Under the pieces are notes generated by a model. The model was not told the DNA's origin. It made no database searches and saw nothing but the letters and a program-made list of their open reading frames with translations. Both the position numbers and the translations under genes were made by a program. A stretch of 64,000 nucleotides of DNA from Mizuhopecten yessoensis (taxonomy: Eukaryota): assembly GCF_002113885.1 (NCBI RefSeq), contig NW_018408683.1, positions 552,144 through 616,143 on the forward strand, read 5' to 3'. Below, piece by piece: positions 19,495 to 61,348 of this stretch (the stretch's first letter is position 1; every line of letters begins with the position of its first letter).

Positions 19495-20805
19495 TCATGT
19501 TGCACACTTGGGTACATATTCCCGTATATAAGTCATTAAATCCATGCCTGTATTCTGACAGGTTCCGGAGCCCGTAACAAAGTGTTCCAGGGCTCCCCAC
19601 AGCCTCATCCATCCAAGTTCTTTACAAGTACACTCGATACTATCACCTAACATGTTAAGAACGTAGAGCGAATCTACCTCGCCTATCGCCCTCGGTACAC
19701 CGGCAAGGTTAGTGTTGTCGAGACTGATTGAGTACAACATTGTATTTTGCTTAAATGCAGTCACTGCAATACCTTCCAAAGATGCGTTACTAAGGTCAAG
19801 GTTTCTCAGCAGAAATAATGTGGACAGATCAGAATCTTCTATGTTCGATACATTTGTGTTTTTCATTAATAAGTTTTCCACCAGTGGTATTTGACGTAGA
19901 GCTGTTGGAATGTGATCAAAGTCCGTGCGGTCTAGTGTGATATTTCTCAGCTTAGACTCGGGTGGTATGGTGTCAAGTTCCCACGATTTTATTGGGGAAT
20001 CGGTGACGTAGATGCTCAGTAAATGAGTACATTTTGAAATATTTGGCATAGTTGATAAGCTGCTGTTTTCTATCACCAAAGAAGTTAGTGAGGTGAGGTT
20101 ATGGATATCAAATGACGTCAGAAGATGGTTGTCGATAACGGCCAAATGCTCCAAGTTAGTTAGTACTTGTACGCTGTCAGGCATATCGTTACATTCATTG
20201 TTCTGCAACACAAGTGATTTCATTGTACCTGCCATGTTAAAGAATGCGTCGAACGGCAAAGAGTAGCAAGTTAGACCTACGACTGTAAGGTGAGTTATTG
20301 CATTCAATTGGTCGATGTATTTCGGCCATGGAGAGTTCTCAGAACCTATGGTAAGGTAGCGAAGAGTAGACGCAAATGACATACTAGTTCCCAGGATTAT
20401 GAAGGGGTTGTCTTGCATTGTAAGAATCTCCAGGTTCGTCAGATCATCTATAGCGTTTGGCAGATACCAGAACTGGTTAGACTCCATATGAACGGAAGTG
20501 ACGACATCATTTGAACCGACTAAGCAATCCATGGACAAGGTACTAATCTTGTTGTGTGACATGTTGAGCGACACGACTGTTATGTTTTCGAATGCTCGCT
20601 TTGGAATGGTGGTGAGCTGGTTGTAGCTAATGTCTACCGTCCAACGCTGCTGACCGCCATTAGAGATTCCAGGAACATGGCTTAAACCTTTCCCACTGCA
20701 GTCTATCATACTTCCGGGGATACGACATGTACAAGGAGGAGGGGCTGGACAGGGCTGACCTGGGTCCACAGCAATCGGCGTAATTAGTCCAACTAACGTC
20801 GTTAT
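19495..20805 (-). CDS. Secreted LRR-only protein, paralog A, exon 2 (LRRNT + LRRs + LRRCT); full protein 448 aa
   Basis: CPAPPPCTC..IDCS LRRNT, LxxLxLxxN repeats, IECTCKELGWM..GTC..VPKCAT* LRRCT; acceptor tttacactacag| at 20806; AATAAA on minus at 19432-19437. Confidence 0.9.
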   Translation of the reverse strand: MTTLVGLITPIAVDPGQPCPAPPPCTCRIPGSMIDCSGKGLSHVPGISNGGQQRWTVDISYNQLTTIPKRAFENITVVSLNMSHNKISTLSMDCLVGSNDVVTSVHMESNQFWYLPNAIDDLTNLEILTMQDNPFIILGTSMSFASTLRYLTIGSENSPWPKYIDQLNAITHLTVVGLTCYSLPFDAFFNMAGTMKSLVLQNNECNDMPDSVQVLTNLEHLAVIDNHLLTSFDIHNLTSLTSLVIENSSLSTMPNISKCTHLLSIYVTDSPIKSWELDTIPPESKLRNITLDRTDFDHIPTALRQIPLVENLLMKNTNVSNIEDSDLSTLFLLRNLDLSNASLEGIAVTAFKQNTMLYSISLDNTNLAGVPRAIGEVDSLYVLNMLGDSIECTCKELGWMRLWGALEHFVTGSGTCQNTGMDLMTYIREYVPKCAT

Positions 20806-22456
20806 CTGTAGTGTAAAGCATACATACATGTTTTAAACGTGGCGCTAACTTCGTTTAAGTTTTGCTTCGTAAGTCATGAATATATATCAATAACATTGCA
20901 AACAAAGTTTGACAAAATAAAAGTTTTGTTCGCGGCTTGAAAACTATATACCATATAGTGTTCATTTCGACACAAACGTCAATTGCATAACGAATCCGTG
21001 ATTTTTTAAATTATATTTTGTTGTTTAACGATAGCCAGTCGGAGTCAGCTTTATTATTGATATACCAATAAAAGACCATGACATGTTATTAAACCATCGC
21101 CTACATATCCAATGCAGACCCATGTAATGTTGAAGCCTAACGCCAGTTTACGCAAAACGGGACACTTGTGGAAAAGCAGCTCAAACAATTGGCATGATAT
21201 GCTAAGAAGTATTTTATTTATGCCAACTTCACTATGTGCTACTGGTATGTCAGTTAGTCTGTATATTAGCTTTATTGGCTGCTGATTACGGTTAAACGGA
21301 CAGTTTAAGGTTGGCGACATAACTCGCTTCATTTAAATTTCATAGGATGCTCTTTAATTTGGTATCAATTTCAGACACTTGTTTGTCCAAAGCTTATGCT
21401 GATTTGGAGGAGAAATTCAATCAAACCCTATTTTGTCTCTGCAAAAGTTGAAGTGTGTGTAACGTTCTTTTAATGGTGATCATTTATCCCCCAATATTGG
21501 TCAAAAAACCAAAGTGTTCCCGGATTTAGGGTACAGCTACACAGGTACACGTACCTGTTTAAGAGCTTCCATGACCCTGGTAGTATTTTGCGTTATATCA
21601 GCTTATAATAAAAGATAAATACATGTGGATAATATGTTTTAATGAAAAATGAACTAACATTTCTTGAATTGACATTATGATTTAAAATACATCAATAATT
21701 ACCCAAAATCAGTCCCGTTTTAGATGCACTGATGGTAAATGTCATAGGGTGTGGCCTAAGGGGATTAACCAAAACAAGTATCCGAATGTAGCCTTGACCA
21801 AAAAAGAAGGTCGAACATCAAACTGTCACAGAAGGTGATTTCTAAACATTTTCGTCAAGTTGGTAAGTACAGGGTGAAGAAACGTTCACTTAGCACAACC
21901 AGCAAAGTGATAATATGTGACGTGTCGATGACTAGTTGGGTATGTCATAATGTCTCATGTTTGGTGCCAAAAACCAAATATTCTAAAGCGTAACGTATTA
22001 AGTCTTCTTGATAACGTGTTAAACAACAGATAAAACCAGCGGTCTAGGATATTTCATGAAAACAATTTAAATTGTCTATCATTTACCATGCACTAATTTC
22101 CCTAAATGTATTTTTCGTCTGCGCAATCTTGCAAATATTTACTGACTTTAGACATTTTGATATGCATAAAGCTATAATGTTTTGCATGTGACCCATTCCC
22201 CAATGTATTCAATGTATACCCTATATCACAGATATGTATTGCTATATCAGATATGTATTGCTATATCACAGATATGTATTGCTCTCTGAATGATTTACGG
22301 ACGGGCATACAACAGAAGACGTTATAGAATTCGGCCAAAGACAGCGAGTAGACGAATTGTTCCATTAGATTAATACATTTCCGACCAGAACTGCAATACA
22401 TAATCCAGGTATTGTTTGTTTACGTTACAACACATTAAAACCAGATATATACTTAC

Positions 22457-28887: not shown

Positions 28888-31800
28888 GGGCCTGTTTCCA
28901 GTAATGTTAATTCTCCATAGGAGCCTGCCCCCGTATAATTTCTTATCTAGCTCAACTACTGTTTTTTTCTTTTCCAAAGTATAATTTTACACCTTTCCGA
29001 CACCCAGATTTCATAATTTCAGTGAAAATGTATTTTTATAAAGTTGTCAATTTCAGCATCAAAGACATAAGTTCGTAAATAAAAGAAGGTTATCTCGAAA
29101 TTGTAATTCGCAACATAGTATAAATTTCTTTTGATAAATATTTCCAAAACATCGTGTTTATTCATAAAACATAAAAAAAAAAATTCTCGGATGAAAATGC
29201 ACTTGCAGAGACACAATTATGAAGAAAAATGCCATAAAATTGCAATTTTCTCCCGTTATATAGTTTTGGATGCAAATTTCCATCAGAAAATCGGATAGAG
29301 CTTTACTTGTTTCATATGTGTACCAAAAATCAGCTAATTCCATGTGGTGGAACGTTCTCATATCGCCGCCTGAATGTGGTTGTAAATTGAAAGAAAAGGG
29401 GAAATGAGTAACAACCTTGTCTGAAACCCTATTATATAGCTTATTATATACAAACTTTTATATTGAATATCAGAGCGGATATTTTCATGACAGTTTTATG
29501 ATGTGTAACGACTAAATAAACAGTATCGATATAAAGATTTACACTGAGGACACCCTGATACATGAATACTGTTCTATCTCAAGTTGTCCTCTTCTGAATT
29601 TTCTGATCGTGTGGCCTTGTACATTTATCCGTATCTTCTTGTCTTTGTCTATACGTTTACGGAATCATTGACTCGACGCTAGCTATTCTTGTCTCACTTT
29701 CCTTGTTTTATTGTCCCATCTCCAAAGCGTTGTGGCTCTGTCAGGGTTGGGACCCTGACTTGTCTCACTTTCTTTGTGCCTGCCGACCACGCCACATCGA
29801 ATAGATAGATTATCCATATGAAATACTTTATTTTGTTCTAAGTAATCAATCAATTCTGCGCTTCTTGGAGGTATTGAATGTGATTTATTATATTGTCTTG
29901 TTATTTTGTGTAATTAGTTGTTCGTTATTTATCACACATTTTCGCATAATTGTACCAAACTACTAAGTATTAGCTGTTTACAGCAATCATCGGTGGCTTG
30001 CTATTTTGTTACTTTATCGACGCTTCATAAACCAATCGTTATTGTTTCAAGATGGAGGGTAAATGTGTTGGAGAAGGGTGTCAAGTATACTTCAAGAAAC
30101 GTAGTGGCAATAAGAACAGAAGTGCACGCAATGTAAATAGTCCACAATATAAATGGCTCCTAGATACGCTGGTGCAACAAGGATTGATGTCAGCAAAGGA
30201 ACAAGCACTTATTTGCCAGAAGTGCTACATGAAGTATCTTCGGAACAAAAATCAGCCTGAACCTGAACCCGAGCAGAACCAGGAAATAGAGGAAGAAGAC
30301 GACTCCCCGTCCCATATCCTGCCGTTGCTGACCCTTCATGATCTTTTGAATGGATCATCTTCACACAAAAAATGCTGTCTCTGTCTTGTTACCTTTGCAA
30401 GAAATGGAACAAAATCATCAGTCTTACCAAAACGTGCAAGACATCACCTGATCTATTCACACAAACTGTGGTGTCCCACCTCATCCCGCGTCTGCTCCAT
30501 TCACCTTATTGGTAACGACTTAGATCCGTCTACAGAGGTTGTCCTTGATGGTAGAGGTTCCTTGGAATCTCAGTTACCATCAAAATCGTCCGAAATCATT
30601 AATGACCTCCTAGAGGTGTCGCACGTCCTTTCACAGAACCAGTCTGCGTTTACAATAAGCTTTTCTTCTCTTGATGACTCGGCATGCATGGCCTGGACAG
30701 GTTGGTCCAAAGATCAGTTCCTCGAAATCCACTCGCACTGTTCCCCATATCTTTCATCTGGTATATATACCAAGACTACACACGATGCTCTATTACTGTT
30801 CTGGGTAAAACTGAAAACCGACATTTCCTGGAGTCAGTGTTCTTCTCTTTTTGGAATTTCCAAGTCAAGTGTGTCCAAAACTTTCCACTCCATAGTACAG
30901 GCATTAGACACATCGATAGTCCCACAATTTCTAGGTCCGGATCACTTGACAAGAGAACAGTTGCTCGGGCACAATACTGTCTTTTCAGAAGCATTTTTTG
31001 GAGATAAAGCCACTGCCATATTAGATGGCACCTATATTTATATCCAGAAAAGCTCCGACCACAAGCTCCAGAGAATGTCCTACTGTGGCCAGAAGAAGAG
31101 AAACTATCTCAAATTCATGAGCATCGCCTTACCAGATGGCTACATTCTGGACACAGTAGGACCATTCACTGGCAGCGAAAATGATGCTACAATTACAAAA
31201 AAAGTCATGGACAAGCTAGTTACTTGGCTACAACCAGACGACAACGTTGTCGTTGACCGAGGTTTTAGAGATGTCCTACCAGTTCTCGAAGCCTCTGGCC
31301 TCAATGCTAGCATGCCGTCATACCTGAAACCCGGTCAAAGTCAACATTCTGACGTCCAAGCAAATCTTGACAGAACTATCACCAAATCGAGGTGGATTGT
31401 GGAATCCTATCATGGTCGTCTGAAACACTGGACGTTCTTCCGAACGCAATTGGTGTCTAACAGCTTTATCAATGTCATCGAGGCTTTGCTTCGAACCGTC
31501 ACAGCCTGTCTGAATGGTATTAGAGGACCGATCTACCAGAGATCTCCAGAGAGAGATGCCAAAGATAGGCTAATGGCTGAACGTATGAAGGACCGTTTGA
31601 CAACACCGAATGGTTTAGCTCAGAGAGTCAAGACAGATCCGGATCTATCTAGACGGGCAAGGTCCGAGTTTGTCAAGATGGATGCATCTTCCGTACTGTT
31701 TCCCCGTCTCGATCTTGATTACTTGAGAACCATTACGTGTGGAACGTATCAGATATCTCTGGCTCCTGGTTACATCGCCGAACATTTAAGTGATGACGGA

Positions 31801-32960
31801 GACTATGAGGTGTGGCTTTACCAGCACTCCCCAGACCTTCTCCGATGTCAAATACATTCTCGACACAAAAGCCAAACGAAATATAACGTTTGGATACGGT
31901 TCACCGTTTCACCCGATGTTGAGGCCCCAATAAAGGACTACTACTGCCAGTGCCCAGTTGGAGAGAGAACGATGGGAATGTGTGCGCACATCTCCAGTAT
32001 CTTGTACTACCTTGGGTATTACAGGACGCTGGAAAACCCTCGACCATTACAACCACAGGTAAAGAAATTCCGACAAAACTTGAAATAGTTTTCCATGCGG
32101 CAACGGAGTGCATATGTCGAAAGTATGTTTGGGGCTCGATATGAAAGATCCCCGTTACCATGTGACTAACCAAACTTATAAATATAGGTATTATACAATC
32201 GCCCGTAGCTATGAACACTCCCGTAAATGCGAAAACCAACCAAAATCATAAGGAACACGTTTTGTTTGTTGTTCTGTCTATTTGTCAGCCAATGTCTTCA
32301 ACCACGGGGACTTGTGAAGTAGCCATCTTGGATTTTTTTTATGAAAAAGTGTTTCTCTCACTTTTTTTCATATCTGTGTACATATTCTCAACATACCGAG
32401 CAAATACTCTCGTTTTTTTGTTAATTATCTAAAGAAAGTCGAAAATCGGCAATTCAACCATAGGCTAATTCAACCCAACATTTGAAAATGTTCCACCACT
32501 TACATTTTGATGATTTTTCCTCTCATCAATAGCATATTACGTACTGTTTAATAGGATAAAAATTGGTTTGCATCCAACGCCCATAAAAGGGTGTATTCTC
32601 TAAAAAACACAGTTTTTGTGTCTAAAATGTTATCATCGAAAATGGCATTTTTGAGATTGTTTCTTCCATAAAACAGCCAAATGGCGCGATGGAAACATGA
32701 TTTTTTGTCACAATCATGCCATGAATGTATTCTTTACGGTGACCATCATTTGATTAGATTTTCATTAATATTTTACATAACATGCACATTTTATCAACAC
32801 TTAGACAGCTTCTGAAAGGTACAACTTTGAGGAGCCATAAAAAACAAACCAAGTGACCTAAATCTTTATACTTTATAGATTTGTGACCACAACGGCATGG
32901 GCAATGCACCACAGGACAGGAAATTTGAATCAGAGAAGGGGCCGTTTTGGAAACCGGCCC
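28888..32960 (+). mobile_element. PHIS-superfamily (ISL2EU/Harbinger-related) DNA transposon, apparently full length (~4.07 kb)
   Basis: Terminal inverted repeats GGGCCTGTTTCCA / TGGAAACCGGCCC (12/13), subterminal inverted pair gtggtggaacgttctca (29344) / tgaaaatgttccaccac (32483), single intact transposase ORF. Confidence 0.75.
30052..32088 (+). CDS. Transposase: N-terminal Cys-rich/THAP-like fingers, HTH (Tnp_4-type), DDE_Tnp_4-type nuclease, C-terminal SWIM zinc finger
   Basis: LLLFWVKLKT...LFGISKSSVSKTF (HTH); ILDGTYIYIQK...SYCGQKKRN...PDGYI...NDA...VVDRGFRD...RWIVESYHGRLK (DDE); YCQCPVGERTMGMCAH (SWIM CxCx9CxH); 678 aa uninterrupted. Confidence 0.92.
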   Translation: MEGKCVGEGCQVYFKKRSGNKNRSARNVNSPQYKWLLDTLVQQGLMSAKEQALICQKCYMKYLRNKNQPEPEPEQNQEIEEEDDSPSHILPLLTLHDLLNGSSSHKKCCLCLVTFARNGTKSSVLPKRARHHLIYSHKLWCPTSSRVCSIHLIGNDLDPSTEVVLDGRGSLESQLPSKSSEIINDLLEVSHVLSQNQSAFTISFSSLDDSACMAWTGWSKDQFLEIHSHCSPYLSSGIYTKTTHDALLLFWVKLKTDISWSQCSSLFGISKSSVSKTFHSIVQALDTSIVPQFLGPDHLTREQLLGHNTVFSEAFFGDKATAILDGTYIYIQKSSDHKLQRMSYCGQKKRNYLKFMSIALPDGYILDTVGPFTGSENDATITKKVMDKLVTWLQPDDNVVVDRGFRDVLPVLEASGLNASMPSYLKPGQSQHSDVQANLDRTITKSRWIVESYHGRLKHWTFFRTQLVSNSFINVIEALLRTVTACLNGIRGPIYQRSPERDAKDRLMAERMKDRLTTPNGLAQRVKTDPDLSRRARSEFVKMDASSVLFPRLDLDYLRTITCGTYQISLAPGYIAEHLSDDGDYEVWLYQHSPDLLRCQIHSRHKSQTKYNVWIRFTVSPDVEAPIKDYYCQCPVGERTMGMCAHISSILYYLGYYRTLENPRPLQPQVKKFRQNLK

Positions 32961-34605: not shown

Positions 34606-35942
34606 GTCATGCCAATTCCGTTCAAAAATACTAACATCGAGTCTTCAGTCACCCCCCGCATGTTACAACACAACGACGACTGCCCGGCCCCAGCTGTGTG
34701 TAGTTGTAGTGATGTTAACAATGTCATTGACTGCTCCGGTAGAGGACTGACTACTGTTCCAAAATTTAGTAAAAGTAACGCCATATGGGACTTGTACATA
34801 CCAAATAACCACATACACAATTTGAAAGATGACGACTTTCAAAACATCAAGATACAGTTCTTAGATCTATCAAATAATTCTTTGGCAACTGTTTCTGACA
34901 ATGCATTGGTTTGGAAAGTTCCCTCCAAACATTACACATTGAGTCGAATAGTTTGACAGGCATTCCAAATGCACTCATGAATTTGATGAAATTATCTTCC
35001 TTGAAAATCCAGCAAAATCCAATCTCATACTTTGACGAAAAAGTCATAAATTCCCTTGCGAGTTCATTGTATACCTTTCATTTCGGTTCTGAAGCAGTGA
35101 CCATTTGGCCAAAGACAGTACAGCTTCTAAATTTGTTTGAGTTGGGTATTTTCAACTTAACTTTAGAGGAATTGCCAGAAACAGCGTTTGCAAATCTATC
35201 GCTAAGTTGGTTATCCCTTAACTCTATGAAGTTGCTAAGACTTCCGTCCAGTTTCAAAGGACTCGAGAATCTATTTACGCTATCCTTGAACACTGACGAA
35301 GATCTAACATTGGACGGAATTCCGAGCACTCTCTTTGAACGTTTCAAAGGACTTAATTGGCTACAGATTATTAACGTTAAGCTCACAGCTCTTCCGGACA
35401 TATTCCACTACGTAACAGGATTGTTTCAGCTCGAAATAAACTCTGTACCCGTATCTGATTTTCCGGGTAACATGATGCCAGAGGATTCCAATATCACTAT
35501 AGCTAACTTTAACGGCACATTGTTCAACGAGGTTCCGACTGCTTTCTCCAAAATGAAGAAGTTATCTGTATTGAGTTTGAACTATAACAATATAACAACA
35601 CTTCGATCCGCCGACCTTTCTGGACTTTCCGAATTAGAATACATATCGATCTCAAACGCCCCACTTGAGAGCGTGTCTCTGGATGCGTTCAGGACACTGA
35701 CATCCCTGTCTTATATAGCACTAGATAACACGGCCTTGACAACCATTCCACGGGCTGTGGAGGGAGTCAAGTTTGATTACTTGAGCCTGCTCGGAAACAA
35801 GCTGATCTGTACTTGCCAGTCAATGGGTTGGATGAAGAATTGGCCCGACGCCAGCAGGGTTGGCATCAACGGTCAGTGTAATAATCTCGATAGCATGCAG
35901 GTTGGTGTTTATGTCAGACAGAAAGTTCCCGAATGTCCTTGA
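34606..35942 (+). pseudogene. Secreted LRR-only protein paralog B, frameshift at ~34905-34911 (young pseudogene or assembly error)
   Basis: ORF 34609 gives LRRNT CPAPAVCSC..IDCSGRGL to DNALV; ORF 34911 continues LESSLQ..LICTCQSMGWM..GQC..KVPECP*; 5' exon boundary uncertain. Confidence 0.8.
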
Positions 35943-36175: not shown

Positions 36176-37069
36176 GGTTATTGTGAAAGGATTATGTAGC
36201 CTCCAAGAAGTGAGGGCAGTTTGGCTAGATCAAATTGCGAAATAGTTTTTTTATTAATACTTAATACACAGTATCAGTAAAGGTATTTTATCAAAAGGAC
36301 CTAATGGACTTTGTATAATCCGAGGGTGTGCCCAAAACATAACCCAACATACCCACACAAAAACCAGCCCACTCCTTTCATCAAACACTCTTGCGGACAG
36401 GGATGCTGAAGATTTGGTCGATAGCATACTCAGACCAAGGGGGCTTAACGTTTCAGAAATGCACAATACCCAAAACCCGTGAACTTTATATGTTGTCAAC
36501 ATGAAACATATGAAACGATTTATCAAAATCGTGCCATGCTTTTGCCCGTTTAACTGCAGTATTGAACAACATATATGTTTGGTTTAACCTCCCATATGTA
36601 TCTTCAAGTAAATTAGCGAGTCAAGCTCGTCGCGAATTGAAAAGGTCGCGTGTTTATATTTAATAAAACGCTTTACAATTAATATGACCCTATTACGGAC
36701 AATTATTTTGGTGTAATACTTCGACAAATAATCAATTATAATATATTATTTATAATATCCTTTATACGAACAAGATGGTCCACTTGTTTTCTAAAAATTG
36801 GTATATCTGACAATCCATTAGTAGATTTTATTATTCTTAGACTTACCTTAAAAATTCATTCTCTCCTCTGAGCCACTCATTTTATCAAATGCAATATTGT
36901 TTTCATTTTAGCAAGTTCCATTTTTACAACAAACAAGTCACCATGAGACAAATAACATACAATTCCCTACAGTACATTAACGGATCACAAAACGTTACTC
37001 AGCTTCAAAATTTTAAAATAGATTATAATGCCGCGTGCACTTCACATTTCTACTGTGTTGCAACATTTA

Positions 37070-39173
37070 TTTGCCTTGATGGAATTTCTGCAAAATACCT
37101 TAGGATGTCCGCAGAGGTTGTGTCTGAGTCAATTACCAAATTATTAAACATATGTATTGCAAAGAATGTTTTCCCAGACCAATTTAAGCATGCTAAAGTC
37201 AATCCAATTTTTAAGAAAGGCGAAAAGAGCTCTGTAAGTAATTACAGACCCATATCTATTCTTCCAATTTTATCCAAACTCTTAGAAAAACATGTGCAGA
37301 CTACCTTTAATAAGTTTTTAAACCAACATAATCTAATCATTGAGAATCAATCAGGATTTCGAAATTTGCATTCATGTCAAACTGCTCTTACTGCACTTAC
37401 AAATAGATGGTATGAAGAATTGGACAAGGGAAACCTCATCGGTGTAATGTATATTGATTTTCGTAAGCCTTTTGACCTTGTTGGCCATAAGATATTACTC
37501 CAGAAAATGAAAATATATGGCTGCTCTGAAAATTCCATTATGTTTTTTACCTCATACCTTTCAAACACATTTCAGAAAGTATCTTTCAAAAGTACTTGAA
37601 GTGATGCCTGTGAAATTACAACTGGTGTACCTCAAGGTTCCATAATTGGGCCTTTGATGTTTTTATTACATGTCAATGATCTGCCACTCTGCTCAAAACA
37701 TTGTGAACTTTTTATGTATGAAGATGTTACTTCAATGCAAAAAGCAGACACAAATTTGGATGTTATCGAATCATGTCTACAAACGGATTTTAATCATGTA
37801 AAGAAATGGTGTGATGTTAACAAAATGGTCATAAATACTGATAAAACCAAAGTAATGTTAATTGGAAGTAAGCAAAAAAAAACATAGATTAAAGAAAAAT
37901 CTAAATATTATAGCTGAAAATTCAAACTTGGAAGTTGTGCAAAATGAATAACTGTTAGGCGTTCGTATCGATGACACCCTAACTTGGGAAAAACATGTAC
38001 AAGACGTCCTAAAGAAACTTAATTATAAAATTTATCAACTATGTAGAATAAAGAAATTCTTACCAGTATCGGCAAGAATCACTTTCCACAACTGTTTTAT
38101 ACTACCATATATTGACTTTTGCTCGAACGTTTGGGGACATTGCTCTCAAAAACTGGTACACAAACTTGAAAGAATTCAAAAACGAGCACTGCGGATTATA
38201 CTAGATGCCGACTATACTGTTCCCAGTTCTCAGCTGTTTGTAAAACTAAAATGGCTGCCTTTTACGTACAGAGTTGAATATAACGAATGTGTTCTGATGT
38301 TTAAAGTAATAAACAAGCTATGTCCAAATTACCTAGACTGCAATACTCTTGTGAGCAATGTCCATACTATCCAAACCAGGTCAGCTGCGGCAGGTAGATA
38401 TGTTGTACCCAAACACAAAACGGAAAAATTCAAAAGCTCTTTTAAATATAATGGACCGACACTCTGGAACAATTTGCCAACCACTGTCTCTAAATGCCAA
38501 TCACTAAACAGTTTTAAGTTCGAGTGCAAAAAACATCTCAATGTAATCTATAAAGACAAGTGTAAAGAAAATTAAAAATCTGCACCCCCTTTCCCTCCTG
38601 AAATATCTATCTGCTGTAGTACCTGGAATATGACACACGTGTATCTAAATGAAGTTTTAGAATTTATCTTAATTACTATTCCTAATGCCCTAATCAACAC
38701 TTTGGTATTAACTCACGCTACATTAGCGTATATTCTGTAATTTTTTACCCTTTGTCACAATGACATGTATGTATATTAGACGCATTATGCGTTTCTTAAA
38801 TCTTCTAAAATGCAGCATGAGAATTTATGCATTGCATGATATTTAGCCAACTTTTTATTTTCCAATACACGTGTGACATATTTTATTGTAAGCCTGTGTG
38901 ATATCACATACCAATATATCTGTGATATGTATTACGTAGTTTTGTTATTGGATACAGGATGCAAGAGTGTTTTTTTTCTTTTTGTTTTTGGTTTTAAAGA
39001 TAATACAATGTTTTATTACCTGTGATATGTAACTTAATTTCTTATTTTTGTACGTGTATGTCATATCCATGTTGTAAATATTGTACATTTTATGTCGACC
39101 ACATGTGAGACGAGTCATGGACTCAATGTGTTATCGAATTTAAATAAAGTCTATTATTATCATTATTATTATT
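37070..39173 (+). mobile_element. 5'-truncated CR1/L2-group LINE, RT domain with stops and frameshifts, 3' UTR and (att)n tail
   Basis: LDGISAKYL...AKVNPIFKKG...NYRPISILPILSKLLEK...QSGFR...IDFRKPFDLV; GVPQGSIIGP; MYEDV (decayed YADD); KTKVMLIG; SFKYNGPTLWNNLP; aataaa plus att repeats at 39143-39173. Confidence 0.88.
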
Positions 39174-43311: not shown

Positions 43312-43347
43312 ATGGCTATGAATGGAACATATGTCTACATAATAACG
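43312..43347 (+). CDS. LRR paralog C exon 1 (MAMNGTYVYIIT)
   Basis: ATG, 12 codons, donor gtaaga; homologous exons upstream of D and F. Confidence 0.85.
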
Positions 43348-43698: not shown

Positions 43699-45033
43699 CT
43701 GTTGCTGACCAGTGGCAGACAGGGTACCTCTGTCTCTGTACCAGACGACCCCCGTCCTTGCCCGGTAAATGCTCCCTGCCGCTGTGACTTCAGTACAATA
43801 ATGTGTAATAATCTCACTGTGACAGAGATTCCAACGTTCACAAAGGTCAACGCGACATGGAAATGCTGGACACTCAACATGAATTACAATTACAATATTA
43901 AAACGATTCCGTCTGGAGCTTTCAGTAACATTCCCTTCTGTTCCCTTCAAATTGGTCATAATGGCTTTGAAATAATAGAAGATGGGGCACTGACTGGGTC
44001 GGAATCTTATCTTGATTCCGTTTTTATGCAGTTCAATAATTTCAAGGAACTTCCGAATGAAATTGCACGAATGCCGAACATCACAATGCTAAGTATCCAT
44101 GACAACCCGATAAACAATCTCCCAGAAACCATGGCATTCGCCTCAACTCTTCAATTTCTGGATATTGGCTCACCAGCAATGATAACATGGCCGTATTCTA
44201 TTAGATATCTGAAATCTGTTTGGAGCTTATCAATGTATAAGTTGCCGATGTCTGGTCTACCTCTAGATGCATTTGAAGGTTTGGAAGACTCAATTCAGTC
44301 TGTGTCGTTTTCTGCAACAAAATTTAAGAGTATTCCGAAAGCACTAAAAACGCTTCGGAAAATGACTGACCTATCTTTTATGGATGATGTTGAATTAGCA
44401 TGCGAAGGAATACCTGATGACGCGTTCCGTGGCATGGACTCACTTACAGATATTTACATAAGCAACAGCAGCATATCAAGCGTTCCGAATTTGTCGGATA
44501 TCCCAACACTTTCCCATTTATACTTGACTAATTCCCCAGTTACAACATGGGATCCAACTACATTGCCAGATCAGCCACTCCTACAATCAGTAAGTCTCGC
44601 TAACACAGATTTCGATCACATTCCGACCGTTGTACGCCGTATTAAAAGTCTGTATCAGTTAACACTAGACAATACCAAAGTATCCCATATTGGACCAGGT
44701 GACCTGGCAGGTCTTCAGAAACTACAATTCCTTAGTCTGATTCAAACGCCGTTGGTCAATATATCTATGGACGCCTTTAACGAGACATACACTCTGCAAG
44801 GTCTGAATTTGGATTACACAAAACTCTCAGGATTCCCTAGAGCCATTGAACGACTTCCGGCTCTGAGGTTTGTGAGTTTACAAAACGTCACAATTGAATG
44901 TTCATGCGCAGAACTTGGCTGGATGAAGACTTGGATCGGCATTAAACAATTGATGGATGGTGGCGGGCAGTGTCATAACAAGCACATGTATTTGACGGAT
45001 TATATACGCACTGAGGTACCAAAGTGTCCCTGA
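43699..45033 (+). CDS. Secreted LRR-only protein paralog C exon 2; full protein 456 aa
   Basis: Acceptor ttctctgcag|; CPVNAPCRC..IMC LRRNT; LRRs; IECSCAELGWM..GQC..EVPKCP*; AATAAA at 45062. Confidence 0.92.
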   Translation: MLLTSGRQGTSVSVPDDPRPCPVNAPCRCDFSTIMCNNLTVTEIPTFTKVNATWKCWTLNMNYNYNIKTIPSGAFSNIPFCSLQIGHNGFEIIEDGALTGSESYLDSVFMQFNNFKELPNEIARMPNITMLSIHDNPINNLPETMAFASTLQFLDIGSPAMITWPYSIRYLKSVWSLSMYKLPMSGLPLDAFEGLEDSIQSVSFSATKFKSIPKALKTLRKMTDLSFMDDVELACEGIPDDAFRGMDSLTDIYISNSSISSVPNLSDIPTLSHLYLTNSPVTTWDPTTLPDQPLLQSVSLANTDFDHIPTVVRRIKSLYQLTLDNTKVSHIGPGDLAGLQKLQFLSLIQTPLVNISMDAFNETYTLQGLNLDYTKLSGFPRAIERLPALRFVSLQNVTIECSCAELGWMKTWIGIKQLMDGGGQCHNKHMYLTDYIRTEVPKCP

Positions 45034-45869
45034 AAGATTGTGCTCTTGCTATTTATCATTCAATAAAACATCGTTTTTGAAAAAGTATTAAGAGTTTTGT
45101 CAATTTGATATAATAGTATTCAATTAAACTTCCAAGGATAAATCCACAAGAAAAATGAAGAACCATTGCATATGATTCATTGCGCATTGGCCGATAAATT
45201 TAAGTATTACAACATTATTGAATTGTTTAAAACAGTGTGTTATGTCTACTTTGTCTATGACAATTTGATAAGATGAATAAAAGACCTATCTAATGAAAAT
45301 AAAAATAATTCCTATTGAAAATAGATTTTGTGACATTACAAAAGCAAGATAAAATAGAGAGAAAGAAAGAGAGAAACTGACGGACAGAAAGACAAACACA
45401 AAAAGAGAATCTGGCACAGAAATATAAAAGATTTGTGTACCCTTATATCTGCATTTAAATAGTTTTTCTTGTGTATATAATGCCTAGTTACTGTATACTT
45501 ATTTCAATACAATGAAACTATAATAAAAATAAATTCCAATATTGACTAGTAGTCGATATTGGTTAAAACGATATTGCAAAAATAACCAGAACTACTTGTG
45601 ATCGAAAGGAGGTAAGGAAGAGAATACGGGTGTTCGCTGGGACTCGAACCTGCGATCCCAGACATCGTAGTTGGGCGGTCTAGTTCTGTCCTAAAAGAAC
45701 ATTTCCTTTAGATGAGGCTAGTATGAAGACTTAGACACTATGTACAATGTACATTCCTTTCGTTACCAATAAGATCCAGTTCTGCCGGTATAACGTTCTA
45801 TTTGTATTGGAAATATCAATCTCTTGTTTTAGAATTATACAAAGGGAATCAATCATTCAGTAGGTATAA

Positions 45870-46318
45870 GAATATTCTTTCTCTTACCCTGGACAGGGAT
45901 ATCCACCATTTAACCGGTGTGAGATTTTCTTATCTCGCCCAAGGGTTTAGACAAGCTACAGTGCGCAGGACGTTATATTGAACAATTGTATGACGTCATA
46001 GCAACAATACCATGACGTCACGGCAACAATACCATGACGTCACGGCAACAATACAATGACGTCACGTCGACAATTCAGCCGCATCACATCAACATTGTCT
46101 TGCATTGATGTAACGTCTATGTAAAATACAAGGATAAACAGTGTAAGAGAAAAATAATCATTCACCCCCTTGGGAGTGAGACAGGGCGATCTCAACCCTC
46201 GGGGTAAGATTCTTAAGCTGTCAAACACTCGGCAAGCCTCGTGTTTGGCAACTTAAGAATCTTACCCCTCGGGTTGAGATAACCCTGTCTCATCCCCAAG
46301 AGGGTGAATGATTCTATT
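45870..46318. mobile_element. Non-autonomous palindromic element (hairpin 46156-46313, loop ctcggcaagcctcg)
   Basis: Long inverted arms; internal atgacgtcacggcaacaatac tandem repeats; absent from the homologous region upstream of paralog C (~42600-42630). Confidence 0.7.
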
Positions 46319-46782
46319 AATCCCGAGGAATACAATTAAGAAATGCAAACAATGCTTCCAAATGTCCTGACACTAAGAAGTAGAGGCTTGAGAATGGTAA
46401 TTACGCTGTGGTCTCACTGCAAATGGTGTTTCGTTTCACTGTGGTACATTTAGGACATACACAATATTATTTTCTACATCAATTATCTCGAGCGCTCGAC
46501 ATATTATGTCCAAATATACTACACCAGGAGAGACTGCAGAAGTGACAAGGTCGTGCCAACAGAGATACTATAAAGAATAGAGTTGTTGTATCAAACATGA
46601 AATACAATAGGTAGTTTTAAAAATACTGCAAATAGTCTATGTCATTCGACAACAGCTGATTAAAATGGAACTATCGATAATATTCTTGTTACACTATTTT
46701 CCTCGAAGTAAACATACAGTTCAAGAGATAAGATATTGGAGTTCATAGGAGTCACAACCTCGTTGATAAGCTCCTTGTAAAG

Positions 46783-46818
46783 ATGGATATGGACGGAATA
46801 TACGTCTACATAATTATG
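46783..46818 (+). CDS. LRR paralog D exon 1 (MDMDGIYVYIIM)
   Basis: ATG, 12 codons, donor gtaagg; 5' UTR nearly identical to that of C. Confidence 0.85.
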
Positions 46819-47689
46819 GTAAGGTGGTTCTCAAAATATTTTTACGTTTTAAATAGAAAACATTATGACGGGTGTCGCATGTTGTTTGGGATACACAACG
46901 CCAACTGCACAGTTTTGCATCTAGAGTATGATTATATACGCACAAAGAGATAATAAAAACAGCTCGGTCGCATTGTGAATAAGATTTGCTTCCAATGAAA
47001 TGCCTAAAGTTCCAAGTAATAGACTATGGCAACGTTATATAACCATAAATACAAAATATCTTTTGTAAAAAATGTATTGTGCGAGTAAGAAAGTCAATGG
47101 CGTTCAGATATGGTGTCAAGAGATTATCTTGAATTTCTAGTAATAAAATGAATATTGAGAATATTTTTTTTTTAAATTAATAGGTAGTTTTAAAAATACT
47201 GCAAATAGTCTATGTCATTCGACAACAGCTGATTAAAATGGAACTATCGATAATAGGTGAAATCTGTAGCAGTTAATGTAGAAACACATGTTATTCACTA
47301 CATCTTTGTTGCATGACAGTTAAACATTACTGCTCATTTAAGAAGAAATATTGAATTAATATTAAGAGGAAAAATGAAATTCAGATGTGAGCAGACTATT
47401 TGGGAGGAGAGTGCAAAAGGGAAAAAATGACTGAATGAGAGATTACTTGAAGCCCCAATACACTTTTGTAAATACTTACTGTTTTACCACTGTAAATGTG
47501 TTCAACACAAAGATTTGATTTATATTGCAAATTAGAGATTTTTTTAGCAAAACAATATGGACGCCTTTCTAGAGATAAAATGGCTTAATTAAGTGAATTA
47601 CCAAATGAAACATGGAAAGAATTGCTTAAAAATAGGAAAATAATACCTCATAATTTACTTACATTGTAATTTGACATTATATGTTGCAG

Positions 47690-49024
47690 CTGCTGCTAAC
47701 CAATGGCATACAGGGTACCTCTCTCCCTGTACCAGAAGATCCCAGCCCTTGCCCGGTGAGAGCTCCGTGTAGTTGCAATTTCAATAAAGTGTTTTGTAAT
47801 AATCTAACTCAGACAGAGATCCCGACCTTCACCAAGGTCAACGCTACTTGGAAGTGCTGGGAGCTCAACATGAACTACAATTATAATATTAAAACGATTC
47901 CGTCTGGAGCTTTCGATAACATCCCCTTTTGTTCCCTTCAAATTGGTCATAATGGCTTTGAAACTATAAAAGATGGGGCACTGGCCGGATCGGAACCGTA
48001 TCTTGATTCCGTTTTTATGCAGTACAATAATTTTAAGGATCTTCCGAATGAAATTGCGCGAATGCCAAACATCACCATGCTTAGTATCCATGACAACCCA
48101 ATAAATTCCCTTCCGCAGACCATGGCATTCGCTTCAACTCTTGAGTTTCTCGATATTGGCTCATCAGCAATGACAACATGGCCGAATTCAATTGGAACTC
48201 TGAAATCTGTTTCGAGCTTGACAATATATAAATTAACGATGTCTGATCTACCTGTAAATGCATTTGAAGGTTTAGAGGACTCTATTCAGTTGCTGTGGTT
48301 TACTGCAACAAAATTCAAGGGTATTCCGAAAGCATTGAGGAGACTCCGAAAGGTTACTGATCTGGCTTTCGAAGATAATGTTGAATTGACTTCCGAAGGA
48401 ATCACTGATGACGCATTCATTGGCATGGACTCACTAAGAGATATTGACATAAAAAACAGTAGCCTTTCAAGAGTTCCGAATCTGTCCAAAATCCCTGCAA
48501 TTTCCTCTCTATCCCTTACTAACTCACCAATTGCATCTTGGGATTCCAATACATTGCCTGAACAACCAATCATACAATCAGTAAGTCTCACTAACACGGA
48601 TTTAGATCACATTCCGGCCGTTGTGCGACGCATCAGAAGTATTTTTCAATTAACACTTCAAAATACTAAAGTATCCCATATTGGACCGGGTGACCTAGCA
48701 GGTCTTCAGAAGTTACAGTACCTTAGTCTGAGTCAAACTCCTTTGGTTAGTATATCAATGGACGCTTTTAACGATACATCAAGTCTCCAAGGTCTTTATC
48801 TAGATAACACAAAACTCTCAGGATTTCCTAGAGCTATAGAACGACTTCCAGCTCTGAGGTTTGTGAGTTTACAGAATGTCACCATTGAATGTTCATGCGC
48901 AGAGCTTGGCTGGATGAAGACTTGGATCGGTATTAAGCAATTCCTGGGTGGTGATGGGCAGTGCCACAACATACGCATGGAGTTTATAGAATATGTACAC
49001 AATGAGGTACCCAAATGTCCTTGA
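47690..49024 (+). CDS. Secreted LRR-only protein paralog D exon 2; full protein 456 aa
   Basis: Acceptor atatgttgcag|; colinear and same length as C; ends EVPKCP*. Confidence 0.92.
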   Translation: MLLTNGIQGTSLPVPEDPSPCPVRAPCSCNFNKVFCNNLTQTEIPTFTKVNATWKCWELNMNYNYNIKTIPSGAFDNIPFCSLQIGHNGFETIKDGALAGSEPYLDSVFMQYNNFKDLPNEIARMPNITMLSIHDNPINSLPQTMAFASTLEFLDIGSSAMTTWPNSIGTLKSVSSLTIYKLTMSDLPVNAFEGLEDSIQLLWFTATKFKGIPKALRRLRKVTDLAFEDNVELTSEGITDDAFIGMDSLRDIDIKNSSLSRVPNLSKIPAISSLSLTNSPIASWDSNTLPEQPIIQSVSLTNTDLDHIPAVVRRIRSIFQLTLQNTKVSHIGPGDLAGLQKLQYLSLSQTPLVSISMDAFNDTSSLQGLYLDNTKLSGFPRAIERLPALRFVSLQNVTIECSCAELGWMKTWIGIKQFLGGDGQCHNIRMEFIEYVHNEVPKCP

Positions 49025-50092
49025 AAGCTGATTTCACAACGTTTTATTAAACAAGACATAGATGTTTTCTTAATATAATGCCATTATGTTGATTTGAGGT
49101 TTCGAGGGAAAGATTGATTTCAATGGTGTACATGATACATTTATAAGAAGCCAAAATAATGAATTATACTGAAATGAATGAAACAACAGCGTGTACTTCT
49201 TGTTTGTCGGTGACAGTTTATCAAGATGATGATTGTATTGAAATGATATCGTTAAAGTGATCATTTATCTTTGATTATAAACTGTGTGTCTAAAAAAATT
49301 GAAATAGAAAGAAAGACAGACAGAAAGTCAGAAAGCGGGACAGAGACAGACACATGGACAGAAACTTGAAATGCAATTTTAAAAATGCTACAAATAGCAT
49401 TCGTAATTCTTAATAGACTGATTAAAATAGTTCAATCGATAATAAAGTTGTTGTTAGTTTCACGTCGCAGTTAACATACAGCTCAGTTCATAATTACGGT
49501 AAGGTGGTGATCTACATATGTTTTACACTTTGAATAGAAAAACGCATACACTTCAACAAAAGTATCTGGTGGTTGCATTAGATTGTTGTGTGTTCCTTTT
49601 GTTTTTTAATATGTTGTTGTATGTTAATTTGTTTGTTAAAAGATGAATGTGATAGCACCTTTAAATTTGGTAATGGAGACAGTATACCAAAAACGATTTA
49701 CACTGCACCGTACAGCTGTTTGTCAATCTAGGATTTATTGGTGATGCTACCGAACTACCTTTGAAACAGAAGAGGTGCGTAATCCTTTAATCATATAAAT
49801 AACTATATTTATTCCACTTTGTCCTGCCAGTAAGGTCGATAGCGCACAGACATAGCGTAAAAAACAGCAGTATTTTTGTCTGTTAAAGTCAAATTTGTTG
49901 GTTTACCGCCCTTACAAAAGACAAGTTCAAAATAAGACAGATGCATAGCAAGACACTGGTATATTTTCAAGTGGTGCAAAGGTAGGGCGGTCAGGTTTTG
50001 TTTCTCAAAAGTGCCCTTAAAGCTTGAGGAAAAGCGTAGTTCCTTCAGGGGCGAATACATATTTCATATAAAAGGACATTTAATATAAATAG

Positions 50093-50964: not shown

Positions 50965-52233
50965 CTGATGCTGACCAATGACATACAGGGTTTCTTTGTC
51001 TCTGTATCAGATTATCCCCATCCATGTCCGGTGAAGGCTCCGTATAGTTGTGGCTTCAGTACAGTAGTATGTAATAATCTCACTCTGGCAAAGATTCCTA
51101 CCTTCACCAAGGTCAACACCTCATGGAAATGCTGGAATCTCAACATGAATAACAATAACAATATTAAAACGATTCCGTCTGGAGCTTTCAGTAACCTCCC
51201 TTTCTGTTCCCTCCGTATTGGTCATAATGGCTTTGAAATTATTGAGGGTGGGGCACTGACTGGATCGGAACCATACATACGAATGCCGAAGATCACCATG
51301 CTAAGTATCCATGCTTACCCGATAAACAACCTCCCAGAGACCATGGCATTCGCTTCAACCCTTCAATTTCTCGATCTTAGATTACCAGCAATGAACACAT
51401 GGCCGTATTTGATTAGTGCTCTAAAATATGTTTGGAACTTGTCAATTGATAATTTGCAAATGTCCAATTTACCTCTTGATGCATCCGAAGGTTTAGAGGA
51501 CTCAATTCAGTCGGTGTGGTTTTCTACAACGAAATTCAAAGGTATATCGAAAGAGACTCCGAAAAATGACAAGCCTGTCTATAATGGACAAGGTAAAATT
51601 AACATCTAAAGGAATACTTGATGACGCATACATTGGCATGGATTCTCTTACAGAAATTATCCTAAGTGACAGTAGTATATCAAGGGTACCGAATGTGTCC
51701 TATATCCCGGTTCTTTCCTTTCTCTCCTTGACAAATTCACCAGTTTCAACTTGGGATTCAACTACATTGCCAGAACAGACACTCCTGCAATCAGTAAGTC
51801 TCAGCAACACTAATTTCGATCACATTCCGGCCGCTGTGCGTCGTATCAGAAGTCTGTATCAGTTATCACTAGAAAATACCAGTGTCTCATATTGAACTAG
51901 GAGACCTGACAGGGCTTCAAAGGTTACAGGAACTTTGTCTGAGTCAAACTCAATTGACCAACATATCTATGGACGCGTTTAACAAGGCAGTGTCTTCTAG
52001 TTCTGCATGTAGATTTCAGAAAACTCTCAGGATTTCCTAGAGCCAGTGAACGACTCCCTGCTCTGAGGGCCGCGAGTTTACAAAATGTCACAATTGAATG
52101 CTCCTGTGTAGAACTTGGCTGGATGAAGACTTGGATCGGCATTAAACAATTGATGGATGGTGGCGGGCAGTGTCATAACAAGCACATGTATTTGACGGAC
52201 TATTAACGCACTGAGGTACCAAAGTGTCGTTGA
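50965..52233 (+). pseudogene. LRR paralog E pseudogene (exon 2); exon 1 remnant without ATG at ~49485-49499
   Basis: Colinear with C/D; in-frame deletion after GSEPY, frameshift at ~51552, TGA at 51893, TAA at 52204; LRRNT Cys lost (KAPYSC). Confidence 0.9.
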
Positions 52234-53333: not shown

Positions 53334-55109
53334 ATGGCTACGGATGAAATATTTGTCTGCATAATTAAGGTAAGATGGTGAACTACAAACTTTTTGATAC
53401 TTTGAAAAAAATACATTATGACGGTGTCGCATGTGATTTGGGAAACGCTTACACTTCCAAAACATCTGATTACCCTTAATAATTATGGTAAGGTAATGAT
53501 TTACATATGTTTTACAGTATGAAAAGAAAACACAATGACGGATGAACAGAGCAGCTGGGTTCTTCTCCAGATTGTCGTGTACTTCTTCTGTTTCAGTTCA
53601 TGTCATTTGTTTTTCATTGTGTATTGAAGCTAAACTCTATGTCATTTTGTATGTATCAATTGACCAATATGATAATAATAATAATTCAAGGTTCTTATAT
53701 ACCGCTTTAGCACCACCTAGTTCGTAGGTCGTCTCAAAGCGGTTCACAAGTTATTATCCGTGGTTATAGGGCCTTTGCAACAAGTCAATATCTTTCTCAA
53801 ATCCCTTGGGAGCATACAGCCGGTGCTGCCATTTAGGCGCTCACAGATAACATTCAACAATCCAAGCACTGCCCAACCATGTACTCATTTACAGCTGAGT
53901 AGACTAGAACAAGCGGAGGAAAGTATCTTGTTCAAAGATACAACACAGTGCCGTGACGTGATGCAAACCCTCAAAGATGTACTGTGAAGGCTCCGTGTAG
54001 TTGTGTGATGAATTAAGTGCTATGTAATAATCTCAACCTTGCAGAGCTCCCGACCTTCACCAAGGTCAATGTCACTTGAAACTGCTGGAAACTCACCATG
54101 AGTCCTCTTTGTTCCCTTCAAATTGGTCATAGTGGCTTTGAAACAATAGAAGATAGGGCGCTGACTGGATCGGCACCATACTTTTTCTCTGTTTTTATGC
54201 AGTTCAATAACTTAAAGGAACTTCCGAAAGAAATTGCGCGAATGCCAAACCTTACAACGCTTAATATCCATGACAACTAAATAATTTATCTTCCACGGAC
54301 CATGGCAATTGCCTCAACCCTCGAATTTCTCGACATCGGATCACTAGCAATGGCAGTATGGCCGTAATCAACTGGAACTTTAAAAAATGTATATAGCTTG
54401 ACAATATATAAGTTGCCGATGACCGAATAACCTCTTGATGCATTCGAAGGTTTAGAGGACCCAATTCAGTCGATGTGACCCCGGTTTACTGCAACAAAAT
54501 TCAACGGTATTCTGAAAGCACTGAAGAGACTCCGAACAATGACAGGCTTGTCTTTTATGGATAATGTTGAATTAACATCTGAAGGAATAACTGATGACGC
54601 ATTCCTTGGCATGGAATCACTTACAGATATTTACATAAGTAACAGTAGTGTTTCCAGGGTTCCGAACGTGTCCTATATCCCAGCACTTTCCTCTCTTATT
54701 TTGACTAATTCACCAGTTTCAACTTAGGATTCAACTATATTACCAGAACAGCCAATAGTCTAACTAACACGGATTTTGATCACATTCCGGCCACTTTGTG
54801 CCATATTAGAAGTCTGAATCGGTTACCAATGAACTATACCAAAGTGTCAAATATTGGACCTGCTGACCTAGCAGGACTTCAGAAATTACAGGAACTTAAA
54901 CTGAGTCATGGTCCTTTGGCATATATATATATATCCATGGACGCATTTAACGAGACAAATAGTATTCAAAGTTTCAAAATGTCACAATTGAATGTTCTTG
55001 TGCAGAACTTGGTTGGATGAAGACTTGGATTTGGGTGGTGGAGAGTGTCATAACATACACATGGATTTGACGGACTACATATGCAGTGAGCTACCCATGT
55101 GCCCTTTAA
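53334..55109 (+). pseudogene. LRR paralog F pseudogene (exon 1 MATDEIFVCIIK 53334-53369; exon 2 remnant 53984-55109)
   Basis: VKAPCSC, LQIGHSGFETIEDRALTGS, MQFNNLKELPKEIARMP, DNVELTSEGITDDAF, ELPMCP; several stops and deletions; acceptor and exon start missing next to a SINE. Confidence 0.88.
53672..53965 (-). mobile_element. tRNA-derived SINE (same family as 27978-28313), head truncated
   Basis: cctagttcgtaggtcgtctcaaagcggttcacaa.ttattatccgtggttatagg... shared with 28016-28260. Confidence 0.8.
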
Positions 55110-59639: not shown

Positions 59640-60409
59640 TCATCGATGGGTGTACTCAACTATGTACTCTGGATAGCACTGAGCACAGTCAAAAATGACA
59701 AATATTGATGGCGTCAACACATTGTCAACGCAAGAGTTGAACGGACGTCGCTTTGGATCGCCTGGGTCTGATGGAGGCTTGCGTATACCAGAGTTGCCAG
59801 AACAACATCGTCCAACTAATGCACGGGCCACAAACATGTATTTCTTGTTAGGGCCGATCGTATCCTCAACATTGGTGAAGATGATTTTATCAGTTGTGCT
59901 ACTCACATCAGGGTTACTCACATTGGCTGGCATGATTTGACCTTGGCTGTGACCTTGGAATATTGCCAGAGAATTGTTGGTGTTTGATTGTCCAATGTTT
60001 GCTGGTGCAAACACAGGCTGGCCGCTGTTGTTAGATGGTCCAAATGGCCCAAACATTGCTGCTCCATTGTTACTGGAAGACGGGAAGAAATTATTGCTGA
60101 ATGTGCCTGCAGCATTGCTATTACTGGTACCACTTAGGGGTACATAGGGAAATGCATGTGAGGTTGTTTTAAAAACATTTTGTTGCTGCTGCTGCTGTGG
60201 CTGTGGCTTATGCATGTTACTGAAATTGAATGAAGCCAGGAAAGGATTTGGAGCATTGTTCGGTGGAGTGTTAAATGACGATGGCAGATTGAAAGCCTGG
60301 GCAAAAGCTGCACTGCTGTTTCCTGGCGGTAAGGACCGGACACCCATATACCCAGGAGTCATTTGGTTGTACCTGTCTGAGTATGAAGCTTGCTTTGCAA
60401 AGTAGGTAC
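59640..60409 (-). CDS. PARP-family mono-ADP-ribosyltransferase (PARP7/11/12-like), last coding exon
   Basis: Acceptor ttgttgtag| phase 1; (G)TYFAKQASYSDRY ... KYMFVARALVG...IRKPP...NSCVDNVLTPSIFVIFDCAQCYPEYIVEY. Confidence 0.9.
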
Positions 60410-61348
60410 CTACAACAACAAGAAGGCCACTTTCTTTCACTAAAACATAAAACCCTGGTATCTGATGTTAATCATTTTACCAAATCCCCAGATATCATTC
60501 CAGTATAAATCTTCATATATTGAATATAAATCAGGTGAATAAATTGTTTTTGAAGATCCTTCTCTCTCCTTTCCAACGTAATGCTGTAGTATTTAAAAAG
60601 ACTACCTAGACAGCAGGTGGTTTCATTCTTCCACCTCACATCTGATTTTTCTGTTTTAATTATATGTAATGTACTTCAAGGGCTATTAAACCCCACCCAC
60701 AGACCTTATTATGCCTTCATAACACATCACAACCAAATCTTGTGATACTTCTCTATTACTTTGAGACCTCTATCAACTGAAGATTGTTCCATTCATACCC
60801 AATTTCATATGACACAGTCATGATTTACTGACCTGCATGAAACAAAGGATATTCCATTATCCAACCACAGCCACATTCCCTTTGAATGAAGGCTGTTTGA
60901 TTTAATTATTCTCGTCCACAACTTATCATGATTTGATGACTATTGCCTTGACCATAGGGTCTCTGCACCCCTGGAATAAGTCATGTTGGAATTGAAGGCT
61001 CAGTATAACCACCTTGTGGATGGTACAAGCTGACTAGTTCGATCCTTTTATGTACATCATCAGAACCATGCAGCGTGTAATGGTAAAATTGACCAGTTTT
61101 GAGTTGGCTGTTCCTTCTTTGTGGTCTCTATGTATCAGCCTAGTGATTGATCAGTTATATCATTTAAACCAGAACTAACTGCATGCCTTCAATGTTTTCA
61201 TGACATATTTCAGGGGTGCAGAGAACGTAAGTGGATATAACCTCTGGAATTTTGAGGATGCTTGAACGAAGACTGCTCAATGATCTTGACGAATGATGAC
61301 TGTATCTTCAATCACCCCTACCACACACTAAAATGTATCACGATGTAC

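Follow-up and report, generated by a model that had tools for sequence, protein, structure and literature searches.

Gene structure and predicted proteins

The window analysed here is a stretch of 64,000 nucleotides (nt) of the Yesso scallop, Mizuhopecten yessoensis (contig NW_018408683.1, positions 552,144 to 616,143 of the forward strand; coordinates below are those of the window), and contains six members of one leucine-rich repeat (LRR) family: genes A, B, C and D and the broken copies E and F, the latter two in one tandem cluster with C and D. We concentrated on the pair C/D and on the face of the LRR fold at which the copies of this family have diverged. Across scallop copies, the concave face varies more than the convex face, chiefly in LRR6-14, a pattern that is real but weaker than the one claimed in a first-pass annotation of the sequence.

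Gene C comprises a 36-nt first exon (43312..43347, + strand; ATG and first 12 codons, signal-peptide-like leader) and one long second exon (43699..45033, +; remainder of the leader, LRRNT, 15 LRRs and LRRCT), connected by a GT..AG joint to 43699 that was present in contigs of all four RNA-like sequencing runs (the type of these runs was guessed, and none is recorded as RNA). Exon 1 agrees with the start of protein P0001, and the whole protein has 456 residues (XP_021371390.1, LOC110461965 in the databases). Gene D has the same layout, with exon 1 at 46783..46818 (+; ATG and first 12 leader codons), a GT..AG joint to 47690 found in contigs of three of the four runs, and exon 2 at 47690..49024 (+); its protein (XP_021371389.1) is 78% identical to that of C. 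The introns of both genes are uncovered in the RNA-like runs. Both are intact tandem copies whose two exons are spliced.

Both products carry a hydrophobic leader, LRRNT, 15 LRRs, LRRCT and 7-8 N-glycosylation sequons. A Pfam scan matched LRR families alone and yielded no TIR domain; the stop codon follows directly after LRRCT, one residue past the last cap cysteine, with no hydrophobic tail, and beyond the leader no hydrophobic segment was found (the highest means over 19 residues are 1.04 and 0.88). With this leader and no anchor, the products are predicted to be secreted. AlphaFold returned a single solenoid (predicted local distance difference test, pLDDT, 87.8; predicted TM-score, pTM, 0.85) with strands at the assigned repeats, so that the predicted fold is a 15-repeat horseshoe. 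Having only LRR families in Pfam and a one-solenoid model, C and D count as LRR-only proteins. No relative of 799-2280 residues, corresponding to a longer fused form, was detected at E 1e-30, a weak indication, and a PDB sequence search, a fold search and the ESM Atlas gave generic LRR matches only.

Differences between C and D

The 444 codons were classed by repeat position and family hydrophobicity, not by computed surface area, into 75 concave x sites (x2, 3, 5, 7 and 8 of each repeat), 75 core, 134 exposed convex, 60 hydrophobic convex, 55 N-cap and 45 C-cap sites. The alignment of C and D is gap-free over these codons, the differences amounting to 98 residues and, at DNA level, to 236 of 1332 bases; by class, the differing residues fall on 22 concave, 11 core, 37 exposed convex, 1 hydrophobic convex, 14 N-cap and 13 C-cap sites.

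The first-pass annotation had noted that nearly every concave strand differs between C and D at its exposed x positions, often with a change in chemistry, and that E supplies further states. This observation is partly confirmed. All quoted strings are present in the sequence (9/9 C/D strand pairs, 3/3 E states), and 12 of the 15 strands do differ at x, but 12.0 are expected at the convex rate, which is chance. Nine strands had been listed; among the remaining six, LRR2, 4 and 15 have no x difference and LRR3, 5 and 11 have one each. Per site, 22/75 concave positions differ (29%) vs 37/134 exposed convex ones (28%; one-sided Fisher p 0.46) and 76/369 of all other sites (p 0.07): the concave differences between C and D stand at the background surface rate and are not above chance. 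Changes of residue class make up 17/22 concave and 21/37 convex differences. Gain or loss of an aromatic residue is the more frequent on the concave face (6/22 vs 3/37), but aromatics already occupy 15% of concave vs 2% of convex sites, and the additional states of E are there, but in a broken copy. A list of differing strands overstates selection, the C/D pattern taken alone being equal to the background surface rate.

Two details of single residues were noted besides. Residue 247 of C is an eleventh cysteine, absent from D and probably unpaired, and asparagines 268 and 408 (x8 of LRR9 and LRR15), which lie in N-glycosylation sequons in C and D, are invariant in 14/14 close relatives.

Selection tests

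For C/D, ratios of nonsynonymous to synonymous substitution rates (dN/dS) were estimated with our own GY94-type codon model, not PAML. The two genes differ with a dS of 0.52 and an overall dN/dS of 0.24. The first-pass annotation had proposed diversifying selection, to be abandoned if the nonsynonymous rate at concave x sites exceeded neither that at other exposed sites nor the synonymous rate; in C/D it exceeded neither the exposed convex rate (p 0.50) nor the synonymous rate, concave dN/dS being below 1 (p 4e-6). In a post hoc subset, the concave sites of LRR6-14, dN/dS was 0.57 vs 0.31 (p 0.04), and below 1 (p 0.02).

Five in-genome copies were then analysed jointly, namely C, D, E, F and the broken copy G, which lies on another contig (C2573:1509663-1510606) and is closest to D. 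Broken codons were masked, leaving 335 (E), 332 (F) and 265 (G) of 444 codons. Concave dN/dS was 0.58 vs 0.38 at convex sites (p 0.0035), and below 1 (p 2e-5). Positive selection was detected neither by M8 vs M7 (p 0.20), the comparison that had been proposed as a check, nor by M8 vs M8a (p 0.43) or M2a vs M1a (p 0.36, three starts), at the low power of five copies; the top three M8 sites are all concave, with posteriors of 0.77-0.90 under a model that is itself not significant. As a class, concave x sites stay short of the dN/dS above 1 that marks diversifying selection, both in C/D (0.37) and in the five copies (0.58). The tips leading to E, F and G blend functional and neutral time, and five sequences carry little power. 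Protein data hinted that the concave face had changed faster along the D tip (0.275 vs 0.072), an idea that was rejected because the codon-level test did not show it (p 0.89).

Variation across scallop copies

The concave rate compared with other exposed sites shows no excess in C/D and an excess family-wide, chiefly in LRR6-14. The family-wide comparison used 12 proteins from four scallop species, 58-100% identical (14 were returned, and two 40% relatives left out), and was done at protein level in parsimony steps per site. Concave sites took 2.87 steps vs 2.31 at exposed convex sites (p 0.032); for LRR6-14 the values are 3.73 vs 2.39 (p 2.5e-4), and for LRR2-5 1.55 vs 2.05. From LRR1 to LRR15, concave steps number 9, 10, 12, 5, 4, 12, 22, 16, 22, 18, 16, 22, 22, 18 and 7. 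In coordinates of gene C, the most conserved concave zone is LRR4-5 (44077..44223, +; five x sites per repeat, with totals of 5 and 4 steps), and the variable zone LRR7-14 (44293..44862, +; 16-22 steps per repeat). The variable strands form a cluster on the solenoid (p 0.0006 once the choice of block is allowed for), unlike the convex sites used as a control (p 0.40), and the LRR6-14 excess survives a stricter comparison with the 102 convex sites that vary freely (p 0.004). The two 40% relatives largely retain the LRR4-5 residues, but a set of 43 distant relatives does not, which makes the conserved zone specific to this clade. As an aside on these proteins, the Pecten maximus model P0002 begins with 100 residues from part of another copy, to which a complete copy is joined; a gene-model error that conceals a third paralog is the probable cause.

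The concave/convex ratio exceeds 1 in each of the ten within-species pairs (1.06-1.72; the pairs are non-independent). In two inferred ortholog pairs, whose orthology is upheld (support 79 and 90) when concave sites are left out of the tree, it is 0.63 and 0.93. On that tree, the concave/convex branch-length ratio comes to 0.85 (0.55-1.31) over the 4 ortholog tips and to 1.59 (1.19-2.14) over the 17 remaining branches, including tips of unresolved orthology, and this order was reversed in 1/150 bootstrap rounds. In pooled counts, paralogs (5 of the 10 pairs) differ at 113/375 concave vs 152/670 convex sites (p 0.009); presumed orthologs (4 pairs: the two above, one for A and one for B) point in the opposite direction, with 79/272 vs 167/483 (p 0.13). 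Three allele-like clusters of distant members differ at 12/225 concave vs 29/394 convex sites (p 0.40). In C and D together, the four RNA-like runs hold 8 coding variants, 5 of them non-synonymous and 1 of those concave, counts that are limited by assembled contigs dropping rare forms. As far as these sequences go, the concave excess appears to sit between paralogs and not between orthologs or alleles. The proposal that each copy has a ligand of its own receives indirect support from the scallop-wide concave excess (p 0.03) and its location between paralogs, but the pair from which it was drawn, C/D, shows no excess.

Broken copies and sequence exchange

Copy E (50965..52233, +) has a 54-nt deletion that removes LRR3, three frameshifting deletions and one in-frame stop; of its exon 1, only an ATG-less remnant was found upstream, at about 49480-49510. 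Copy F (53334..55109, +) retains exon 1 (53334-53369), and its body (about 53963-55109) is interrupted by six in-frame stops and has lost 48, 13, 76 and 19 nt in four deletions. A tract of about 90 nt at 44911..45000 (+) is identical between C and E, a length reached in 0/500 permutations; by this identity it marks a recent exchange, which could have run in either direction. C and D differ at 6/56 synonymous positions in codons 56-122 (43864-44064 vs 47855-48055) and at 90/273 elsewhere (window test p 0.03, 0.06 and 0.13 for three sizes), which makes an old conversion tract possible there. A mosaic origin, with different ancestries for the front and the rear half, was considered and found unsupported, as the rear-half tree is not rejected by the data of the front half (approximately unbiased (AU) test, p 0.15).

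Other family members and features of the window

Gene A (19495..20832, -) is a distant member, 37% identical to C, with an open frame of 445 residues; gene B (34899..35942, +) is 30% identical to C, and its open frame spans LRR3 to the end. A genome search, in which 94 of 158 candidates were scored, added copy G and two distant members. Members of the family with 28-32% identity occur in oysters, pearl oyster and mussels. A literature search covering main texts, titles and the starts of abstracts, with subscription journals and supplements outside its coverage, returned no paper naming the C/D family or its accessions.

Between C and D lies a repeat element with inverted arms (45879-46300), deeply covered by contigs of many other loci in 4/4 RNA-like runs, and a tRNA-like stretch was spotted by eye near 45630-45680. 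An open frame of 685 residues with DDE_Tnp_4 and HTH_Tnp_4 domains (30031-32088, +), 2.8 kb upstream of gene B, we take to be a Harbinger/PIF-type transposase. GC-rich frames at 13215-15886 (+), with a tyrosine-recombinase-like sequence at their end, are presumably a decayed DIRS-type retroelement, and the stretches at 36841-38575 (+) and 25446-27188 (-) we assume to be reverse transcriptase-like fragments of long interspersed nuclear elements (LINE). The window has an N gap at about 26.4-27.1 kb. A frame at 59640-60467 (-) carries a low-complexity N/Q/P stretch and matches the final part of the PARP catalytic domain (PF00644; E 2.9e-5, a score that falls short of the curated cut-off), and tandem repeats at 6383-6940 and 24245-24859 yield spurious open frames.

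Comparison with known LRR systems

Among proteins with automatic names in this family, LGR4, chondroadherin and SHOC2 reflect the generic LRR fold (best PDB matches about 20% identical, TM-score 0.4-0.6); these names are best-hit annotation, not orthology. An LGR4-type receptor is ruled out by the length of 456 residues and the lack of a seven-transmembrane domain or any transmembrane segment, and a Toll-like receptor (TLR) by the lack of a transmembrane helix and TIR and by the stop after LRRCT. Variable lymphocyte receptors (VLRs) of jawless fish share the LRRNT-LRR-LRRCT solenoid and a variable concave face (PMC10199209). C and D differ from them in having no stalk, a fixed number of 15 repeats and, in contigs that drop rare forms, low within-gene variation, with no somatic assembly seen. 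They also lack the membrane anchor of VLRs. The parallel with VLRs drawn in the first-pass annotation fails because C and D are complete germline genes, matched by transcript contigs, with little allelic variation seen. Judged by its predicted proteins, the C/D family is LRR-only by definition and falls outside VLRs, TLRs and LGRs.

The mosquito LRIM/APL1 family is described as mosquito-only, with 6-14 LRRs, and its coil-less members resemble C and D in signal peptide, LRR domain, cysteine caps, secretion and membership of a gene family (PMC3020904); they differ in that C and D have 15 repeats and no space for a coiled coil after LRRCT, and the LRIM-type match in the ESM Atlas is a generic LRR look-alike. 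Plant PGIPs are reported to be LRR glycoproteins that are secreted and encoded in small tandem clusters, pseudogenes included, which evolve by birth and death and whose copies differ in the xxLxLxx region (PMC4115169). They share tandem LRR copies and broken members with the C/D cluster, but differ from it in that their enzyme target is known and sites under positive selection have been reported. Binding through the concave sheet is established for LRR proteins, and in Arabidopsis EFR, concave patches are reported to be conserved among orthologs under mostly purifying selection, while much of that surface has diverged among paralogs, read as distinct ligands (PMC3138743). The ortholog/paralog pattern is the same as in the scallop copies, but EFR is a membrane receptor kinase of unrelated origin with a known ligand. 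In the scallop Chlamys farreri, five of the six proteins CfLRRop-1 to -6 are reported to bind lipopolysaccharide (LPS), peptidoglycan (PGN), glucan and poly I:C (PMC5877582); like C and D they are scallop LRR-motif-only proteins encoded by several genes, a likeness of description and not of alignment.

Interpretation

We regard it as about an even call that scallop copies shift their binding partner after duplication and then keep it, with concave change mostly in LRR7-14 and between paralogs; to this extent the earlier interpretation, different ligands under diversifying selection, is partly supported. On general knowledge of LRR proteins, the predicted secreted horseshoe would bind its partner through the concave sheet. 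After a tandem duplication, a copy would alter LRR7-14, and the new face would then be kept or the copy would decay, as E, F and G did. LRR2-5, and above all LRR4-5, likely hold a contact common to all copies, with LRR7-14 setting copy-specific binding, and the change would come in short post-duplication bursts, too brief or too few to raise dN/dS above 1. The least certain part, somewhat less probable than the partner shift itself, is that the partners of C and D are microbial molecules; an immune role is suggested by the scallop CfLRRops, and enzyme-binding or matrix roles are conceivable as well.

Several results weigh against the partner-shift reading. Between C and D themselves, concave dN/dS is 0.365 vs 0.306 at exposed convex sites (likelihood-ratio test p 0.50), no pre-defined class exceeds 1, and the best post hoc subset (x5 and x7 of LRR6-14) reaches 1.02. 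The five-copy concave excess is carried by the E, F and G tips (0.93 vs 0.49, p 0.0009), the C and D tips showing none (concave 0.22 and 0.21 vs convex 0.28 and 0.18). Under the stricter 102-site control, the whole concave face is no longer significant (2.87 vs 2.58, p 0.26), and the excess hinges on the definition of x (p 0.03, 0.03, 0.12 and 0.16 for four definitions). The ortholog contrast in branch lengths depends on the two inferred pairs, and a second pair for A, omitted for its shared tip, gives 27/67 vs 47/122, a ratio of about 1.05. Finally, brief positive selection and relaxation are inseparable with the present data.

Relaxed constraint is the main competitor, although we consider it rather unlikely: LRR2-5 alone would bind, and the x sites of LRR7-14, as unconstrained surface of a beta-sheet, would drift near-neutrally in redundant copies, many of which then die. 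That E, F and G are broken would fit, as would the values of dN/dS nearing 1 (0.57 for LRR6-14 in C/D, 1.02 for x5 and x7, 0.73 in the five copies, 0.93 on the broken tips), and concave x sites are the most tolerant class among the 43 distant relatives (entropy 3.16 vs 2.88). But concave dN/dS is about 0.2 on the C and D tips and LRR6-14 in C/D stays below 1 (p 0.02), and one ortholog pair differs at 1/30 x5/x7 sites vs 34/134 convex sites, so the variable zone is held within that lineage. An ongoing arms race, in which concave x sites would be positively selected again and again under pressure from pathogens and to which the diversifying selection of the first-pass annotation would correspond, is considerably less probable. 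The family-wide excess and the concave location of the top three M8 sites (0.77-0.90, model not significant) agree with it, as does the episodic positive selection reported in mussel TLR ectodomains (PMC10279657); it is opposed by dN/dS below 1 (p 4e-6 in C/D, p 2e-5 in the five copies), the null site models (M8 vs M8a p 0.43, M2a vs M1a p 0.36), the absence of a concave excess between orthologs and in allele-like sets, and the single concave non-synonymous change among the 8 coding variants of the 4 runs.

Two further explanations invoke exchange between copies. Gene conversion as the main cause, with the front half homogenised between copies and the rear half retaining older differences, would account for the synonymous dip in codons 56-122 and for the 90-nt tract common to C and E. 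We hold it to be a shade less likely still than the arms race: the synonymous divergence of LRR4-5 is ordinary (11/38), this zone is conserved across four species, the front/rear contrast is absent at convex sites (p 0.46), and the AU test on the front half gave p 0.15. VLR-like somatic diversification of C and D, with E and F as donor cassettes, is the least credible of all. Broken copies do adjoin the intact genes, one tract is shared, and 3/4 C variants match the D or E base, but C and D are complete germline frames with no stalk or anchor, and the contigs of the 4 RNA-like runs, which drop rare forms, show 0-2 differences each and no mosaic joints.

Going beyond the favoured shift of partner after duplication, these secreted 15-LRR proteins could be conceived, in a speculation that we hold to be unlikely, as an undescribed bivalve family serving as a limited, germline-encoded set of soluble adaptors, in which a fixed LRR2-5 dock for one host effector would be combined with copy-specific LRR7-14, retuned by post-duplication bursts of positive selection toward microbial or dietary targets. 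The evolutionary pattern as such has precedents in plant EFR and PGIP and would be of little surprise to a specialist. Bivalves carry many uncharacterised LRR-only genes, and the C/D cluster provides a compact test case, with an intact, gap-free, 78%-identical pair and mapped conserved and variable zones, in which a swap of LRR7-14 could probe specificity.

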